Shown here piece by piece: positions 23,784 through 28,752 of a stretch of DNA of 34,379 bases. Origin of the DNA: a virus (taxonomy: Duplodnaviria; Heunggongvirae; Uroviricota; Caudoviricetes); IMG/VR virus record IMGVR_UViG_2778261181_000004; one strand, 5' to 3'. Both the position numbers and the translations under genes were made by a program. The notes below the pieces were generated by a model. That model worked only from the letters and a program-made list of their open reading frames with translations, was not told the origin of the DNA and did no database searches. Each line of letters starts with the position of its first letter. Within the stretch, counting starts at the first letter, position 1.

Positions 23784-23992
23784 ACCAGAATGATATCGAA
23801 GCCATGATTCAGCGTTATACGGAAGCTGAAATGGCGGTGCTGGACGGAAAATCCGTCACTTTTAATGGTCAGCAGATGACCATGGAAAACTTATCTGAGA
23901 TCCGGCAGGGGCGGCAGGAGTGGGAGCGCCGCCTTGCGGCTCTGATTACACGACGACGGGGGCATCCCGGGTACCGGCTGGCGAGGTTCTGA
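23780..23992 (+). CDS. Head-tail joining protein gpW-like
   Basis: 70-aa product ending RRRGHPGY (lambda W ends RRRGPAGF); ATG 23780 after GGAGGA; overlaps the terminase stop. Confidence 0.75.
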   Translation: MNQNDIEAMIQRYTEAEMAVLDGKSVTFNGQQMTMENLSEIRQGRQEWERRLAALITRRRGHPGYRLARF

Positions 23993-25500
23993 TGGCAATT
24001 CTTGATGATGTGATTGGCGTTTTTTCACCTGGATGGAAAGCGGCAAGGCTGCGTTCCCGTGCGGTGATCCAGGCTTATGAGGCCGTAAAAACGACGCGGA
24101 CACACAAAGCCCGGCGGGAAAACCGAACTGCCGACCAGTTAAGCCAGTACGGGGCCGTGTCGTTACGTGAGCAGGCCCGTTACCTTGATAACAACCACGA
24201 TCTGGTTATTGGTGTATTTGACAAGCTGGAAGAACGGGTGGTGGGGAAAAACGGGATTATTGTCGAGCCACATCCGGTATTACGCAATGGGGCCATTGCC
24301 CGTGACCTGGCAGCGGAGATACGCACCCGATGGAGTGAATGGTCTGTCAGTCCGGAAGTCACCGGGCAGTTCACCCGCCCGATGCTGGAACGTCTGATGC
24401 TGCGTACCTGGCTGCGCGATGGTGAGGTGTTTGCCCAGATGGTTTCCGGGCGCATAAACAGCCTGACGCCTTCTGCCGGTGTTCATTTCTGGCTGGAGGC
24501 GCTCGAGCCGGACTTTATTCCCATGACCAGTGATGAGAGCAACAGGCTGAATCAGGGCGTGTTTGTTGATGACTGGGGGCGTCCCGAAAAATATCTGGTG
24601 TATAAAAGCCGTCCCGTATCCGGACGGCAGATGGAAACCAAAGAAGTGGATGCAGAGCGAATGCTGCATCTTAAATTTGTTCGCCGTCTGCACCAGATGC
24701 GCGGGACGTCTTTGTTGTCCGGTGTGCTGATCCGCCTCAGTGCCCTGAAAGAGTATGAAGATTCTGAGCTGACTGCAGCAAGGATCGCCGCTGCTCTGGG
24801 GATGTACATCCGCAAAGGCGACGGGCAGAGCTATGAACCGGATGGTAATGGCAGCAAGGATAAGGAACGCGAGCTTACCATTCAGCCAGGCATTATTTAC
24901 GACGATCTGAAACCCGGCGAAGAAATCGGAATGGTGAAGTCGGATCGTCCCAATCCTAACCTTGAAACTTTTCGTAATGGTCAGTTGCGTGCCGTGGCGG
25001 CGGGCAGTCGTCTGAGTTTTTCCAGTACAGCGCGCAACTATAACGGCACTTACAGCGCCCAGCGTCAGGAGCTGGTTGAATCCACTGATGGCTACCTGAT
25101 CCTGCAGGACTGGTTTATTGGTGCCGTCACCCGCCCGATGTATCGTGCCTGGCTGAAACAGGCTGTGGCATCCGGTGTTATCAGACTACCCCGCGATCTT
25201 GACCGTTCTTCACTGTATACCGCGGTGTATTCCGGACCGGTGATGCCGTGGATTGACCCTGTTAAGGAGGCTGAGGCCTGGAAAATTCAGATTCGTGGTG
25301 GAGCAGCGACAGAATCAGACTGGGTACGTGCAGGTGGTCGTAATCCGGATGATGTCAAACGTCGGCGCAAGGCCGAAATTGATGAAAACCGCAAGCTGGA
25401 TCTGGTATTTGATACCGATCCGGCCAGTGATAAAGGAGGCAGCAGTGCCGCAACGAAACGACAGGAGCCGCAGCACACCGACGACCAGTCCGAAGAATAA
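23992..25500 (+). CDS. Portal protein (lambda gpB family)
   Basis: ATG 23992 overlapping the W stop (TGATG); about 500 aa; located between W and the protease-capsid gene. Confidence 0.8.
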   Translation: MAILDDVIGVFSPGWKAARLRSRAVIQAYEAVKTTRTHKARRENRTADQLSQYGAVSLREQARYLDNNHDLVIGVFDKLEERVVGKNGIIVEPHPVLRNGAIARDLAAEIRTRWSEWSVSPEVTGQFTRPMLERLMLRTWLRDGEVFAQMVSGRINSLTPSAGVHFWLEALEPDFIPMTSDESNRLNQGVFVDDWGRPEKYLVYKSRPVSGRQMETKEVDAERMLHLKFVRRLHQMRGTSLLSGVLIRLSALKEYEDSELTAARIAAALGMYIRKGDGQSYEPDGNGSKDKERELTIQPGIIYDDLKPGEEIGMVKSDRPNPNLETFRNGQLRAVAAGSRLSFSSTARNYNGTYSAQRQELVESTDGYLILQDWFIGAVTRPMYRAWLKQAVASGVIRLPRDLDRSSLYTAVYSGPVMPWIDPVKEAEAWKIQIRGGAATESDWVRAGGRNPDDVKRRRKAEIDENRKLDLVFDTDPASDKGGSSAATKRQEPQHTDDQSEE

Positions 25501-27472
25501 TTCCTGGTTCAGGATGCAGGCTGGTCACCAGAGTGACGCGGATATTTATATTTATGACGAGATTGGTTTCTGGGGTGTTACAGCGAAGCAGTTTATCAGT
25601 GATCTGAATGCACTGGGCGATATCACCCACATTAATCTCCATATCAATTCACCGGGTGGCGATGTCTTTGAAGGCATCGCCATTTTTAATGCGCTGAAAA
25701 CACATGGTGCGTCCATTACCGTTTATGTCGACGGTGTGGCGGCGTCAATGGCGTCGGTCATTGCGATGGTGGGAAACCCGGTCATTATGCCGGAAAACAC
25801 CTTCATGATGATTCATAAACCATTTGGCTTTACGGGCGGTGATGCGGAGGACATGCGCACCTATGCCGACCTGCTCGATAAAGTTGAGGCGGTTCTGTTA
25901 CCCGCTTATGCACAGAAAACCGGGAAAACCACCGATGAAATTGCTGCCATGCTGGCAGATGAGACCTGGATGTCCGGTGCCGAATGTCTGGCACATGGAT
26001 TTGCTGATCAGGTGACGCCAGCCGTTAAGGCAATGGCATGTATTCAGTCAAAACGTACAGAGGAATTTAAAAAGATGCCGGAATCCATTCGAAACATGAT
26101 TACTCCGCCACGCAACAGTGCTCCACGCGTACAGGATAATGAACCTGCAGCCTCCCGGACGCCAGTGCAGGCAGCAGCACCCATGGTGGATGAAAACAGT
26201 ATCCGTGCGCAGGTACTGGCAGAGCAAAAAGCGCGTGTAAACGGTATTAATGATCTGTTTGCCATGTTTGGCGGGCGTTATCAGACGCTGCAGGCTCAGT
26301 GTCTTGCCGATCCTGAATGTTCGCTGGAGCAGGCCCGCGAAAAGCTGTTGAACGAGATGGGGCGCGAGTCCACGCCATCCAATAAAAATACCCCGGCTCA
26401 TATTTATGCCGGTAACGGTAATTTTGTGGGGGACGGGATCCGCCAGGCGCTGATGGCGCGTGCCGGATTTGAAAAAACCGAACGTGATAATGTCTACAAC
26501 GGGATGACCCTGCGTGAATATGCCCGTATGTCACTGACTGAACGGGGTATTGGGGTTTCCAGTTATAACCCGATGCAGATGGTCGGTGCGGCGTTCACAC
26601 ACAGTACGTCTGACTTCGGTAATATTCTGCTGGATGTTGCGAACAAAGCCATTCTGCAGGGCTGGGAAGATGCTCCTGAAACCTATGAACAGTGGACGCG
26701 GAAAGGTCAGTTGTCTGATTTTAAAATTGCCCATCGTGTGGGTATGGGGGGCTTCAGTGCTCTGCGTCAGGTGCGTGAAGGGGCGGAATATAAATACGTC
26801 ACCACCGGAGATAAACAGGCCACTATTGCACTGGCGACCTATGGCGAGCTGTTCAGTATCACCCGTCAGGCCATTATCAATGATGATCTGAATATGCTGA
26901 CCGATGTCCCGATGAAACTGGGCCGTGCGGCGAAATCCACTATTGCCGATCTGGTTTATGCCATTCTGACGTCTAACCCGAAAATCTCCACAGATAATGT
27001 AAGTCTGTTCGATAAAGCGAAACATGCAAACGTACTGGAGAGCGCTGCAATGGACGTGGCATCGCTGGATAAAGCCCGCCAGTTGATGCGCGTTCAGAAA
27101 GAGGGGGAGCGTCATCTGAATATTCGTCCTGCGTTCGTACTGGTACCGACGGCGATGGAGTCTGTTGCTAACCAGGTCATTCGCTCCTCAAGTGTCAAGG
27201 GGGCTGACATTAACGCCGGTATTATTAACCCGGTGAAAGATTTTGCGACCGTTATTGCAGAGCCTCGTCTTGATGATAACAGCCAGACCACCTTCTACCT
27301 GGCTGCGTCAAAAGGCTCCGATACGATTGAAGTGGCTTATCTCAACGGTGTGGATACGCCATATATTGATCAGATGGAGGGCTTCAGTGTGGATGGCGTG
27401 ACAACGAAAGTGCGTATTGACGCCGGTGTCGCGCCAGTTGATCACCGCGGTCTGGTGAAATGTACGGCGTAA
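25445..27472 (+). CDS. Fused head maturation protease (ClpP/S14-like) - scaffold-like linker - major capsid protein
   Basis: Single ORF with N-terminal ClpP-like domain, Ala/Gln-rich helical middle region and C-terminal capsid-like domain; preferred start GTG 25445 with AAAGGAGG 5 nt upstream, overlapping the portal 3' end (ORF-track start 25253 is deeper inside portal). Confidence 0.75.
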   Translation: MPQRNDRSRSTPTTSPKNNSWFRMQAGHQSDADIYIYDEIGFWGVTAKQFISDLNALGDITHINLHINSPGGDVFEGIAIFNALKTHGASITVYVDGVAASMASVIAMVGNPVIMPENTFMMIHKPFGFTGGDAEDMRTYADLLDKVEAVLLPAYAQKTGKTTDEIAAMLADETWMSGAECLAHGFADQVTPAVKAMACIQSKRTEEFKKMPESIRNMITPPRNSAPRVQDNEPAASRTPVQAAAPMVDENSIRAQVLAEQKARVNGINDLFAMFGGRYQTLQAQCLADPECSLEQAREKLLNEMGRESTPSNKNTPAHIYAGNGNFVGDGIRQALMARAGFEKTERDNVYNGMTLREYARMSLTERGIGVSSYNPMQMVGAAFTHSTSDFGNILLDVANKAILQGWEDAPETYEQWTRKGQLSDFKIAHRVGMGGFSALRQVREGAEYKYVTTGDKQATIALATYGELFSITRQAIINDDLNMLTDVPMKLGRAAKSTIADLVYAILTSNPKISTDNVSLFDKAKHANVLESAAMDVASLDKARQLMRVQKEGERHLNIRPAFVLVPTAMESVANQVIRSSSVKGADINAGIINPVKDFATVIAEPRLDDNSQTTFYLAASKGSDTIEVAYLNGVDTPYIDQMEGFSVDGVTTKVRIDAGVAPVDHRGLVKCTA

Positions 27473-27493
27473 ACGTCGCAGACAACAACTCTG

Positions 27494-27517
27494 ATGGCCC
27501 GTAAGGGCTTTTTTTGT
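27494..27517 (+). terminator. Putative intrinsic terminator after the capsid gene
   Basis: Short GGCCC/GGGC hairpin with GTAA loop followed by TTTTTTT; a second 7-bp hairpin CAGCCCC/GGGGCTG at 27527-27545. Confidence 0.5.
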
Positions 27518-27558
27518 ACCTGAAATCAGCCCCTGAACGGGGCTGTGCGGAGACAGTT

Positions 27559-27882
27559 ATGGCAAAGAATTTTGTAGAAGAAGGAAAAACGGTGGCGATT
27601 GTTGCCAGTGCAGCCATCAGCAGCGGAGATCTGGTGCAGGTGGGTGATGTTTTTGCGGTGGCGCTGACCGATATTCCACAGGGTGAAACAGGCGACGGCA
27701 TGACCGAAGGTGTGTTTATGCTGCCTAAGCTGAAAACGGATGACATGAAAACGGGTAAGAAGGTTTATCTGAAGTCCGGAAAAGTTCAGCTGACTAACAG
27801 CGGCTCTGATCCGCTGGTCGGGGTTGTCTGGGCAGATGCCGGAACCAGTGCAGAAGAAGTGCCGGTAAAACTCAATGTCTGA
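27559..27882 (+). CDS. Small head-associated protein (in the position of lambda FI / decoration proteins; family uncertain)
   Basis: ATG 27559 with GGAG RBS 6 nt upstream; 107 aa; 8-nt overlap with the next gene. Confidence 0.55.
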   Translation: MAKNFVEEGKTVAIVASAAISSGDLVQVGDVFAVALTDIPQGETGDGMTEGVFMLPKLKTDDMKTGKKVYLKSGKVQLTNSGSDPLVGVVWADAGTSAEEVPVKLNV

Positions 27883-28150
27883 TCCCTTTTCCCGGCTGGC
27901 AGCGCGTATGGATGCGATCACGGTCAGAAAGATGGGAAAGACAGCCTCGATTAATGATGTCGATATGACTGTGATCCCGGGAGAAACACTGGCAGAGCTG
28001 AATGCTCTGTCCGGACCTGCGGTCTCTCTGGTGGTGTTTTCTTCGGGATACCGCCCACGGCGCGGGGATCGCGTTGTTTATGACGGACAACAATGGACGG
28101 TCACACGGCATGAACGCTTTAACGGTAAGCCAATGATCTTTATTGAGTAA
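27875..28150 (+). CDS. Head-tail attachment protein, lambda FII-like
   Basis: 91 aa; C-terminal PRRGDRVVYDGQQWTVTRHE parallels lambda FII LRRGDTLTIGEENFWVDR. Confidence 0.65.
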   Translation: MSDPFSRLAARMDAITVRKMGKTASINDVDMTVIPGETLAELNALSGPAVSLVVFSSGYRPRRGDRVVYDGQQWTVTRHERFNGKPMIFIE

Positions 28151-28161
28151 AGAGGTGTGGG

Positions 28162-28752
28162 ATGAAGGGGCTTGAGAATGCCATCCGCAATCTGAACAGC
28201 CTTGATACCCGTATGGTGCCACAGGCCAGCGCATGGGCGATAAACCGTGTGGCACAGAAAGCGGTCTCGGTTGCCACCCGGCAGGTTGCCGGGAATACCG
28301 TTGCGGGAGATAACCAGGTGAAAGGGATCCCCCTGAAACTGGTACGTCAGCGTGTCCGGGTGTTTAAAGCCAGTCCGTCAGGAAAAATGACGGCCAGGAT
28401 CCGCGTTAACCGGGGTAATCTGCCCGCCATCAAACTGAACACAACACGGCGGCGTGCTGGTGAAGGACTGAGAGTGGGAAAATACTTTTTCCGGGGGGCA
28501 TTTGTTCAGCAACTGGCGAATGGCCGCTGGCATGTTCTGAGGCGTCTTCCTGAAGCGCGTTTTGCAACAGGGCATGACCATCAGGGCAGGCCAAGAAAAA
28601 ATCGTCTTCCTGTGGAGGTAGTGAAAATCCCGCTGTCCGGACCGCTGACACAGGCATTTGAAGATGCCCGCGACCGCATCATTGCTGCGGAAATGCCGAA
28701 ACAGCTGGGGTATGCACTGAAACAACAACTGAGATTATGGCTGACCCGATGA
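28162..28752 (+). CDS. Z: Minor tail protein, lambda Z-like
   Basis: 196 aa (lambda Z is of similar size); positioned between FII-like and U; AGAGGTGTGGG RBS. Confidence 0.6.
   Translation: MKGLENAIRNLNSLDTRMVPQASAWAINRVAQKAVSVATRQVAGNTVAGDNQVKGIPLKLVRQRVRVFKASPSGKMTARIRVNRGNLPAIKLNTTRRRAGEGLRVGKYFFRGAFVQQLANGRWHVLRRLPEARFATGHDHQGRPRKNRLPVEVVKIPLSGPLTQAFEDARDRIIAAEMPKQLGYALKQQLRLWLTR

Follow-up and report, generated by a model that had tools for sequence, protein, structure and literature searches.

The capsid gene of an mEp460/cdtI-like lambdoid prophage: a Gifsy-2-type protease/scaffold-like/capsid fusion starting within the portal gene, with a candidate nested start

The gene at 25445–27472 of the 34,379-nt window (the whole stretch of DNA analysed) is a member of an already known family, the Gifsy-2-type capsid genes, and as a fusion gene it presents nothing new. 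In our reading, which we hold with high confidence, it encodes the head shell of an mEp460/cdtI-like lambdoid prophage and is a Gifsy-2-type fusion translated from GTG 25445, whose product would be assembled and self-processed as a polyprotein, by analogy with its relatives as far as assembly and cleavage are concerned. Its domain content, start site and family membership are supported by the sequence and by the predicted fold (Table 1). Furthermore, given the signature found around ATG 26075, the gene may have another product besides the full-length protein.

Table 1. Features of the fusion gene and its neighbourhood (window coordinates)
Feature	Position	Strand	Details
Lambda-family portal gene	23992..25500	+	502 aa; Pfam Phage_portal_2, E 6e-82
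Shine-Dalgarno AAAGGAGG	25432..25439	+	5 nt 5' of GTG; portal codons Asp-Lys-Gly-Gly
Protease/scaffold-like/major capsid fusion gene	25445..27472	+	GTG start, 675 aa, 73.6 kDa
N-terminal extension, aa 1-20	25445..25504	+	Basic, Ser/Thr/Pro-rich, poorly conserved, predicted disordered
ClpP-fold serine protease domain, aa 21-192	25505..26020	+	Ser101, His124, Glu173
Candidate nested start	26060..26077	+	GAGGAA (AGGA 26061-26064), 10-nt A/T-rich spacer, ATG 26075 (Met211, then Pro212)
Pro/Ala-rich linker, aa 224-246	26114..26182	+	Disordered, pLDDT <50
Three-helix block, aa 250-307	26192..26365	+	Putative scaffolding (delta-like) domain
HK97-fold major capsid domain, aa 327-675	26423..27469	+	Mu gpT-like family
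Intrinsic-terminator-like hairpin GGCCCGTAAGGGC + T7	27496..27516	+	Between capsid and decoration genes; sequence scan
Head-decoration (cement) gene	27559..27882	+	107 aa; PHROG 122 'head decoration' E 3e-47; Pfam Phage_cement_2 E 1.4e-20

The 675-aa protein matched the NCBIfam model NF045540 ('ClpP-like prohead protease/major capsid protein fusion protein', curated cut-off 475 bits) with 985.2 bits, with aa 32-674 aligned to profile positions 2-651 of 652. Besides this score, the features of a family member that we found were an N-terminal ClpP-fold domain with its Ser and His and, in the same frame, a C-terminal HK97-fold domain. The RefSeq protein WP_001360054.1 covers the same span (99.8% nucleotide identity), and the RefSeq CDS of E. 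coli IHE3034 encodes 675 aa from an identical start. Matches are present in 2,125 of the 5,426 complete E. coli genomes (~40%); the arrangement is among the commonest head-gene types of E. coli prophages and has its own NCBI family model. The fusion of a ClpP-like protease, a scaffold-like region and a capsid domain in a single ORF, proposed in a preliminary description of this DNA, was thus borne out by the domain matches, the family score and the predicted folds. The observation is correct but ordinary, since such a gene has been described for Gifsy-2 and occurs in so large a share of E. coli genomes.

Both the ClpP and the HK97 folds are visible in the structure predicted with AlphaFold from 122 diverse sequences (mean pLDDT 88.6), which is the usable model; the one built on a shallow alignment of 27 close sequences reached a mean pLDDT of 40.8. 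Residues 1-17 have pLDDT <50, and the first strand of the ClpP fold is formed by residues 22-26. The preliminary description had named the failure of a domain search to find a protease as a possible refutation, and the search returned the ClpP-like domain at aa 21-192. In this domain the conserved residues include Ser101 (nt 25745) and His124 (nt 25814), while the position of the ClpP catalytic Asp is occupied by an invariant Glu173, so that the third catalytic residue aligns as Glu and not as Asp. A central region is present and conserved between protease and capsid, where the linker and the three-helix block together span aa 203-307. The linker itself varies in length and sequence, producing gaps in the homologue alignment. 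The three helices (250-273, 280-288 and 294-307) are predicted with pLDDT 91-97 and are confident also in the shallow-alignment model; no family annotation was found for the block, whose putative scaffold role we infer from its position and from Gifsy-2 and MD8. The C-terminal capsid domain falls into the Pfam family of Mu gpT (PF10124; hhalign E 7e-5).

A long ORF of this kind could in principle be an artefact, in which a sequencing frameshift or prophage decay joined a separate protease gene and a separate capsid gene; in its extreme version the portal would be included too, as in the 1159-aa proteins found in databases. Indeed, database entries of 1080-1159 aa fuse portal, protease and capsid, and in one genome (L090) the protease and scaffold-capsid parts lie in different frames. 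However, an uninterrupted fusion of the 675-aa type occurs in 79 loci from several orders, in 74 phage records, some of them of plaque-forming phages, and in some 2,000 complete E. coli genomes; we regard the artefact as practically excluded. The 1159-aa portal-protease-capsid proteins were not accepted as real: their frame switches are scattered (25259 to 25469) and each is a singleton, thus matching the expectation for random indels. Antisense ORFs (117-194 aa) within the gene were also discarded, as the stop-free stretches shift among homologues and are absent in an AT-richer Providencia phage.

Concerning the start site, the fusion gene begins inside the portal gene and overlaps its 3' end by 56 nt (the homologous portal CDS of mEp460 is 1509 nt long). 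Within the portal frame, the Shine-Dalgarno and the GTG are under synonymous constraint: among 34 unique homologues, AAA is the only codon used for the portal Lys, and the Gly is encoded by GGA or GGG and in no case by GGC or GGT, whereas the portal codons beside the Shine-Dalgarno wobble. The AAGGAGG-N5-GTG arrangement is conserved across genera, and the duplex energy of AAAGGAGG (-11.6 kcal/mol) is similar to that of the major tail gene site. Other starts have been annotated, namely ATG 25349 in Tritos and ATG 25514 in mEp460 (RefSeq), PhiR40_1 and a Providencia phage. Translation from ATG 25514, just past the portal stop, would yield 652 aa with no overlap and would make AAAGGAGG-GTG a by-product of portal coding, and the Met at this position is retained in many enterobacterial homologues. 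However, its Shine-Dalgarno is poor (-2.2 kcal/mol), and Gifsy-2, Fels-1, Pasteurellaceae and several Pseudomonas loci carry Ile at this position and have no start downstream of Trp21. This Trp is retained in 78/78 scored related loci; in about 30 of them no in-frame start codon follows it, and three start with MK(S)W. The Ser-Trp-Phe/Tyr motif just 5' of ATG 25514 is invariant, even where it falls past the portal stop, and makes the first strand of the fold in the predicted structure; the alignments of PHROG 133 and of distant phage ClpP proteases begin at residues 15-21. The 675-aa form is also the one used by PGAP and by NCBIfam-based annotation. A start at ATG 25514 is therefore very unlikely, and GTG 25445 is the better supported of the two on sequence grounds. 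The choice of GTG 25445 with its 56-nt overlap, already made in the preliminary description, agrees with conservation, synonymous constraint and the 675-aa RefSeq product; mEp460, PhiR40_1, Tritos and other GenBank/RefSeq phage records probably carry a wrong start, and the 675-aa GTG form would be preferable.

Besides making the full-length polyprotein, ribosomes could also initiate at ATG 26075, giving a protease-free scaffold-capsid protein of 465 aa (50.7 kDa) that would co-assemble with the protease-bearing subunits. Such a nested product would extend the explanation given above, not replace it. ATG 26075 lies directly after the ClpP domain, and all 79 unique homologues have it. Wherever codon 206 encodes Glu, it is GAG (65/65); it is the sole column at 100% among 34 conserved Glu columns (0.10-0.79 in the others) and ranks first among 140 two-fold-degenerate columns, followed by Lys203 (AAA in 68/69). 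AGGA or GGAGA is retained in 79/79 homologues, even when the Glu is replaced by Gln or Lys. Synonymous entropy reaches its lowest value in the gene at aa 200-206 (0.41, against a mean of 0.80), and the mRNA is least structured near aa 203-219 (-2 to -3.4 vs -7.6 +/- 1.9 kcal/mol). The Shine-Dalgarno energy of the AGGA site (-6.0) is like those of the portal (-7.1) and decoration (-6.6) starts in the window. Furthermore, nested starts are annotated at the equivalent place in lambda (Nu3 within C) and Mu (Z within I), and the nested product would have the layout of the HK97 protein in which a delta domain precedes the capsid domain.

On the other hand, of 113 more distant fused proteins (30-57% identity) no more than 7 carry Met at position 211, the others having Ile, Ala, Val or Leu there, while Pro212 is 91% conserved; thus Met211 could be a hydrophobic residue kept at the protein level. 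The distance of 10 nt between AGGA and ATG is at the long end of the functional range, and the Shine-Dalgarno of GTG 25445 is much stronger than that of the AGGA site. In addition, by our estimate a T=7 procapsid has room for ~415 N-terminal parts, so a nested product is not required. Overall, we consider initiation at ATG 26075 a serious possibility, although the balance tilts somewhat against it. The corollary, to be taken just as tentatively, is that in the gammaproteobacterial branch one gene may act as two nested genes, whose start ratio would set the number of protease copies per procapsid. Separate products from internal starts, which the preliminary description had listed among the results that could refute it, may accordingly be produced in part, as far as the signature at ATG 26075 indicates. 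In the literature we found no description of a nested product for this fusion family; the Gifsy-2 paper may address the point.

Some further candidates in this part of the gene were rejected. The standalone 'MP...' scaffold-capsid homologues that could have represented an ancestral Met211 start (P0257, P0272, P0371 and P0288) are truncated by contig ends, and P0250, from genome L090, is really the fusion with a one-base frameshift. Programmed -1 frameshifting at TTT AAA AAG, 5' of ATG 26075, was discarded: the site is not a canonical in-frame X XXY YYZ, and both codons vary among homologues. The internal ATG 25853 (Met137) was rejected as a start because its GGAGG lies just 2 nt upstream and the site falls within the protease domain.

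Downstream of the fusion gene, the counterparts of the hairpin GGCCCGTAAGGGC in mEp460 and mEp213 are annotated as rho-independent terminators, and the mEp460 counterpart of the following gene is annotated as 'head decoration'. This decoration protein is of the PF09956 type, and no solved structure matched it by sequence. A scan of 25000-28200 found no sigma-70-like promoter.

On this basis, head assembly could proceed as follows. Translation would begin at GTG 25445, from the strong Shine-Dalgarno located in the 3' end of the portal gene, and yield a polyprotein of 73.6 kDa. On the model of Gifsy-2, HK97 and lambda, its capsid domains would build a T=7 procapsid that encloses the scaffold-like helices and the protease domains, the protease would remove everything N-terminal of the capsid domain, with the cut expected around aa 308-326, where the predicted structure has low confidence, and the shell would then expand and bind the separately encoded decoration protein.

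Compared with the NF045540 family, the gene shows no material difference and is an ordinary member. The Pseudomonas phage MD8 gp5, another member, is 57% identical to it and has been described as a protease, scaffold and capsid protein in one gene (PMC8508860). The resemblance to Gifsy-2, already put forward in the preliminary description, is confirmed: the Gifsy-2 tripartite capsid gene (NC_010393 STM1034.3n) shares 69.6% amino-acid identity over residues 18-674 and Fels-1 shares 72%, with matches spanning 97% of the length. The Gifsy-2 gene was reportedly characterised structurally by Effantin et al. in 2010 (Virology 402:355), work cited elsewhere for such a tripartite gene, and its proteolytic maturation is said to leave a shell protein made of the capsid domain only. 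The Gifsy-2 capsid is reported as T=7 and the cement protein as trimeric. Gifsy-2 and Fels-1 likewise combine a ClpP-like N-terminus with a central domain and an HK97-fold C-terminus, start within the portal 3' end and have a separate decoration gene next; the gene order (terminase, small adaptor, lambda-type portal, fusion, decoration, head-tail genes) is shared. They differ in the N-terminal extension: AAGGAGG-GTG is absent, the annotated start is an ATG lying more to the 5' side, which makes the overlaps 86 and 83 nt, and the position of ATG 25514 holds no Met.

What the gene has in common with lambda is the succession of functions behind a lambda-family portal, the separate decoration protein and possibly the nested scaffold start after the protease domain, Nu3 in lambda and, as a candidate, ATG 26075 here. 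The start inside the portal 3' end, pointed out in the preliminary description, is present; it is normal for lambdoid phages, since in lambda the protease gene C starts inside the portal gene B with a 20-nt overlap. In lambda, however, C, D and E are separate genes, with D between Nu3 and E. The proposal that one gene replaces lambda's C, Nu3, D and E holds for the protease, scaffold-like and capsid functions but not for D, which has its counterpart in the separate decoration gene. Likewise, the C and E modules have functional analogues here and not orthologues: lambda gpC is an S49 peptidase to which the S14 ClpP-like protease is weakly related (hhalign E 4e-4, probability 35%), and no match between the capsid domain and lambda gpE was detectable. 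In Mu, protease and scaffold are encoded by gene I, inside which Z has its nested start, and the capsid protein comes from a gene of its own, T; the stop of I overlaps the start of T by 4 nt, thus a one-base frame change would yield a tripartite gene. No similarity was detectable between the Mu I protease and the one described here. In summary, the protease differs in family from lambda gpC (S49) and Mu gpI, and the capsid is fused, not separate as in lambda and Mu. If the nested start were true, a polyprotein capsid gene could control protease dosage in this way, which would be a mechanistic tie to lambda C/Nu3 and Mu I/Z. In HK97, the scaffold-like N-terminal (delta) domain of gp5 is fused to the HK97-fold capsid protein and cut off by the phage protease gp4, which is encoded by a separate gene and belongs to a different family, and covalent cross-links take the place of a decoration protein. 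The layout of HK97 gp5 is exactly that of the putative Met211 product.

The fusion-gene frame (+) stays open in the window sequence between 25244 and its stop codon at 27472, and translation from GTG 25445 gives a product of 675 aa (73.6 kDa). The preliminary description had proposed that a single ORF joins a ClpP-like head protease to a capsid domain, and had named a domain search for the protease as the check. The Pfam matches to both parts, the PDB search and the AlphaFold model bear this out (see table), and the presence of the fusion gene in the window is confirmed. An additional, weaker Pfam match was to Mu-like_gpT. In the PDB sequence search ClpP scored E 4e-16, its alignment taking in both the GxAASM Ser and the IHxP His, and the C-terminal profile matched the solved Mu-gpT-type capsid proteins 8rkx/8rkc (E 1e-8) and 9jod (E 4e-5). 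The residue aligning with the ClpP catalytic Asp is Glu173 (25961-25963), an invariant Glu across the fusion family; the adjoining Asp172 is not conserved. The AlphaFold model was built on an alignment of 122 diverse homologues, with a mean pLDDT of 88.6. Antisense ORFs within the fusion gene were rejected, as they are not conserved.

Features of the fusion gene and its surroundings (nt, window positions; aa, numbered from GTG 25445)
Feature	Position	Evidence or remark
Portal gene (+)	23992-25500	Pfam Phage_portal_2, E 6e-82; stop TAA 25498-25500
AAAGGAGG before fusion-gene start	25432-25439	5-nt spacer to GTG 25445
Fusion gene (+)	25445-27472	overlaps portal gene by 56 nt
Disordered N-terminus	aa 1-17	AlphaFold model
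ClpP fold	aa 21-192	AlphaFold model
CLP_protease	aa 31-191	Pfam, E 2.8e-36
Two short helices	aa 203-219	AlphaFold model
Candidate nested start, AGGA-N10-ATG (Met211)	26060-26077	directly after protease domain
Disordered Pro/Ala linker	aa 224-246	AlphaFold model
Three confident helices	aa 250-307	AlphaFold model
Short disordered stretch	aa 316-324	AlphaFold model
Alpha/beta domain	aa 327-675	AlphaFold model
Phage_capsid_4	aa 377-672	Pfam, E 2.1e-54
Terminator-like hairpin and T7 run	27496-27516	directly after capsid gene
Decoration gene, 107 aa (+)	27559-27882	PHROG 122 'head decoration', E 3e-47; Pfam Phage_cement_2
91-aa gene	27875-28150	Pfam 'Gifsy-2' PF13856 (described as ATP-binding sugar transporter); weakly Phage_attach

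GenBank/RefSeq phage records (loci L001, L002, L003, L006 and L007) carry three start annotations for this gene: ATG 25514 in mEp460 and PhiR40_1, ATG 25349 in Tritos, and a start corresponding to GTG 25445 in mEp213, the Stx2d phage and RefSeq (PGAP) E. coli genomes. These records call the product anything from 'Nu3' to 'terminase protein'. GTG 25445 is favoured on four grounds. First, of the 78 loci scored, nearly all place Trp21, in a Ser-Trp-Phe/Tyr motif, 16 residues before YDEIG (a few, 14-17), and it is kept even where the portal stop lies well upstream; an in-frame start 3' of it is lacking in about 30 loci, Gifsy-2, Fels-1 and Pasteurellaceae among them, and in three loci the protein begins with MK(S)W. 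Second, the first beta-strand of the modelled ClpP fold spans residues 22-26, and alignments with PHROG 133 and distant phage ClpP proteases begin at residues 15-21. Third, the Shine-Dalgarno energy is −11.6 kcal/mol at GTG 25445, comparable to that of the window's major tail gene, versus −2.2 (almost none) at ATG 25514. Fourth, where the portal reading frame runs through the Shine-Dalgarno, 34 unique enterobacterial sequences use AAA but never AAG, and GGA/GGG but never GGC/GGT; CAGTG is likewise retained, though adjacent portal codons wobble freely. The region 5' of the GTG lacks protein-level conservation and contains in-frame stops in other lineages. The GTG start with its upstream ribosome-binding site and portal overlap, as first described, is upheld as the best supported. 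Such an overlap is ordinary: in lambda, C overlaps B by 20 nt, the protease gene likewise starting inside the portal gene.

The capsid frame has no stop in the 67 codons that precede the GTG, so any indel in 25244-25500 creates a portal-capsid fusion. We rejected the 1080-1159-aa 'portal-protease-capsid' database proteins (P0006-P0017, P0043, P0044, P0070, P0072) as genuine; since their frame switches are scattered from 25259 to 25469 and each is a singleton, they are indel artefacts or decayed copies.

The fusion gene is an ordinary member of a known and very common family. It is >99% identical to that of mEp460, cdtI, Tritos, Ayreon and other phages, and the remainder of the window is, from its sequence, an mEp460-like lambdoid prophage. 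A named model already exists (NCBIfam NF045540, 'ClpP-like prohead protease/major capsid protein fusion protein'), against which the window protein scores 985 bits (cut-off 475). The same 675-aa CDS is annotated in E. coli IHE3034 in RefSeq, and 2,125 of 5,426 complete E. coli genomes match the gene. Full-length relatives occur in 74 phage records, and relatives in Enterobacterales, Pasteurellaceae, Pseudomonas and Shewanella. The scaffold-capsid part, used as query, retrieved 10,617 cluster representatives at E <= 1e-3, the best being mostly 600-800 aa long, i.e. fused. The protein shares 69.6% identity with that of Gifsy-2 and 72% with that of Fels-1 across 97% of its length. In all examples examined the gene order is constant: large terminase, small adaptor, lambda-type portal, fusion, decoration and head-tail genes. 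The tripartite capsid gene of Gifsy-2, cited in the preliminary description, proved a sound parallel, in both identity and gene order. The literature is in agreement. The Gifsy-2 capsid is reported as T=7, with its cement protein standing as trimers on the threefold axes. For Pseudomonas phage MD8 (protein 57% identical to ours), PMC8508860 reports protease, scaffold and capsid protein encoded by a single gene.

Stenotrophomonas phage S1 (L097, 1502-3484) and NCBIfam NF045541 join this capsid family to a non-ClpP N-terminal module of ~330 aa, with 36% identity to the window family over the capsid domain. Therefore, it seems that this capsid protein either gained a fused protease/scaffold module more than once or underwent module swapping.

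Downstream, the separate decoration gene, also found in mEp460, mEp213, MD8 and Gifsy-2, refutes the proposal that the fusion replaces lambda D. A second GC-rich hairpin, CAGCCCC-TGAA-CGGGGCTG (27528-27546), lies just 5' of the decoration-gene ribosome-binding site, and 27470-27565 folds at −31.2 kcal/mol (z −1.9). This structure might tune the capsid-to-decoration expression ratio. No sigma-70-like promoter was found in 25000-28200. By position, the 91-aa gene most likely encodes a head-tail joining protein. Records name it 'DNA breaking-rejoining protein', 'minor tail protein' or 'head completion protein', and names other than head-tail joining look like annotation errors.

Potential novelty is confined to the signature of a possible nested start. 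We scanned every in-frame start codon across 79 unique homologues, and ATG 26075 (Met211) was the sole column with both a start codon in 100% of sequences and a strong Shine-Dalgarno score on average (energy −6.0 in the window, close to the values of genuine starts nearby). Glu206, five codons before it, is GAG in 65/65 and the Gln or Lys variants use CAG or AAG, so that AGGA (78/79) or GGAGA (1/79) stands 10 nt before the ATG in all 79. Among 34 conserved Glu columns, Glu206 alone is 100% GAG (the rest 0.10 to 0.79), and it ranks first of 140 two-fold-degenerate columns, with Lys203 (AAA in 68/69) second. Coherently, the gene's minimum of synonymous entropy in a six-codon window falls at aa 200-206 (0.41 versus a mean of 0.80), and its least-structured mRNA, across homologues, lies around aa 203-219. 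The putative product is a scaffold-capsid protein of 465 aa (50.7 kDa). Against this, the more distant fused relatives (113 sequences) carry Ile, Ala, Val, Met or Leu at position 211 and conserve only Pro212, so Met211 may be no more than a hydrophobic residue. Any nested start would be confined to the window's clade. Weighing both, we regard a start at ATG 26075 yielding a protease-free product as a tentative proposal, of somewhat less than even likelihood. Apparent stand-alone homologues beginning at Met211 lend it no support, as they proved to be contig-end truncations or a frameshifted copy. In the latter locus (L090, GCA_000755365.1, 2357-4332), the ClpP and scaffold-capsid parts are 38 nt apart and not in the same frame; homologous peptide sequence runs on through the break, which has the look of a one-base frameshift in the fusion gene. 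If that prophage were functional, a start equivalent to Met211 would be required.

Overall, the core of the original interpretation is right and its lambda D claim is wrong. Regarding the proposed replacement of lambda's head genes, protease and capsid parts do share one ORF, but the modules are not lambda's own. Indeed, the protease is only weakly related to lambda gpC (hhalign E 4e-4), and for the capsid domain the match is Mu gpT (E 7e-5), with none to lambda gpE. The candidate Met211 product of the fusion gene would parallel the nesting of lambda Nu3 in C and of Mu Z in I, and the putative 465-aa protein would have the layout of HK97 gp5.
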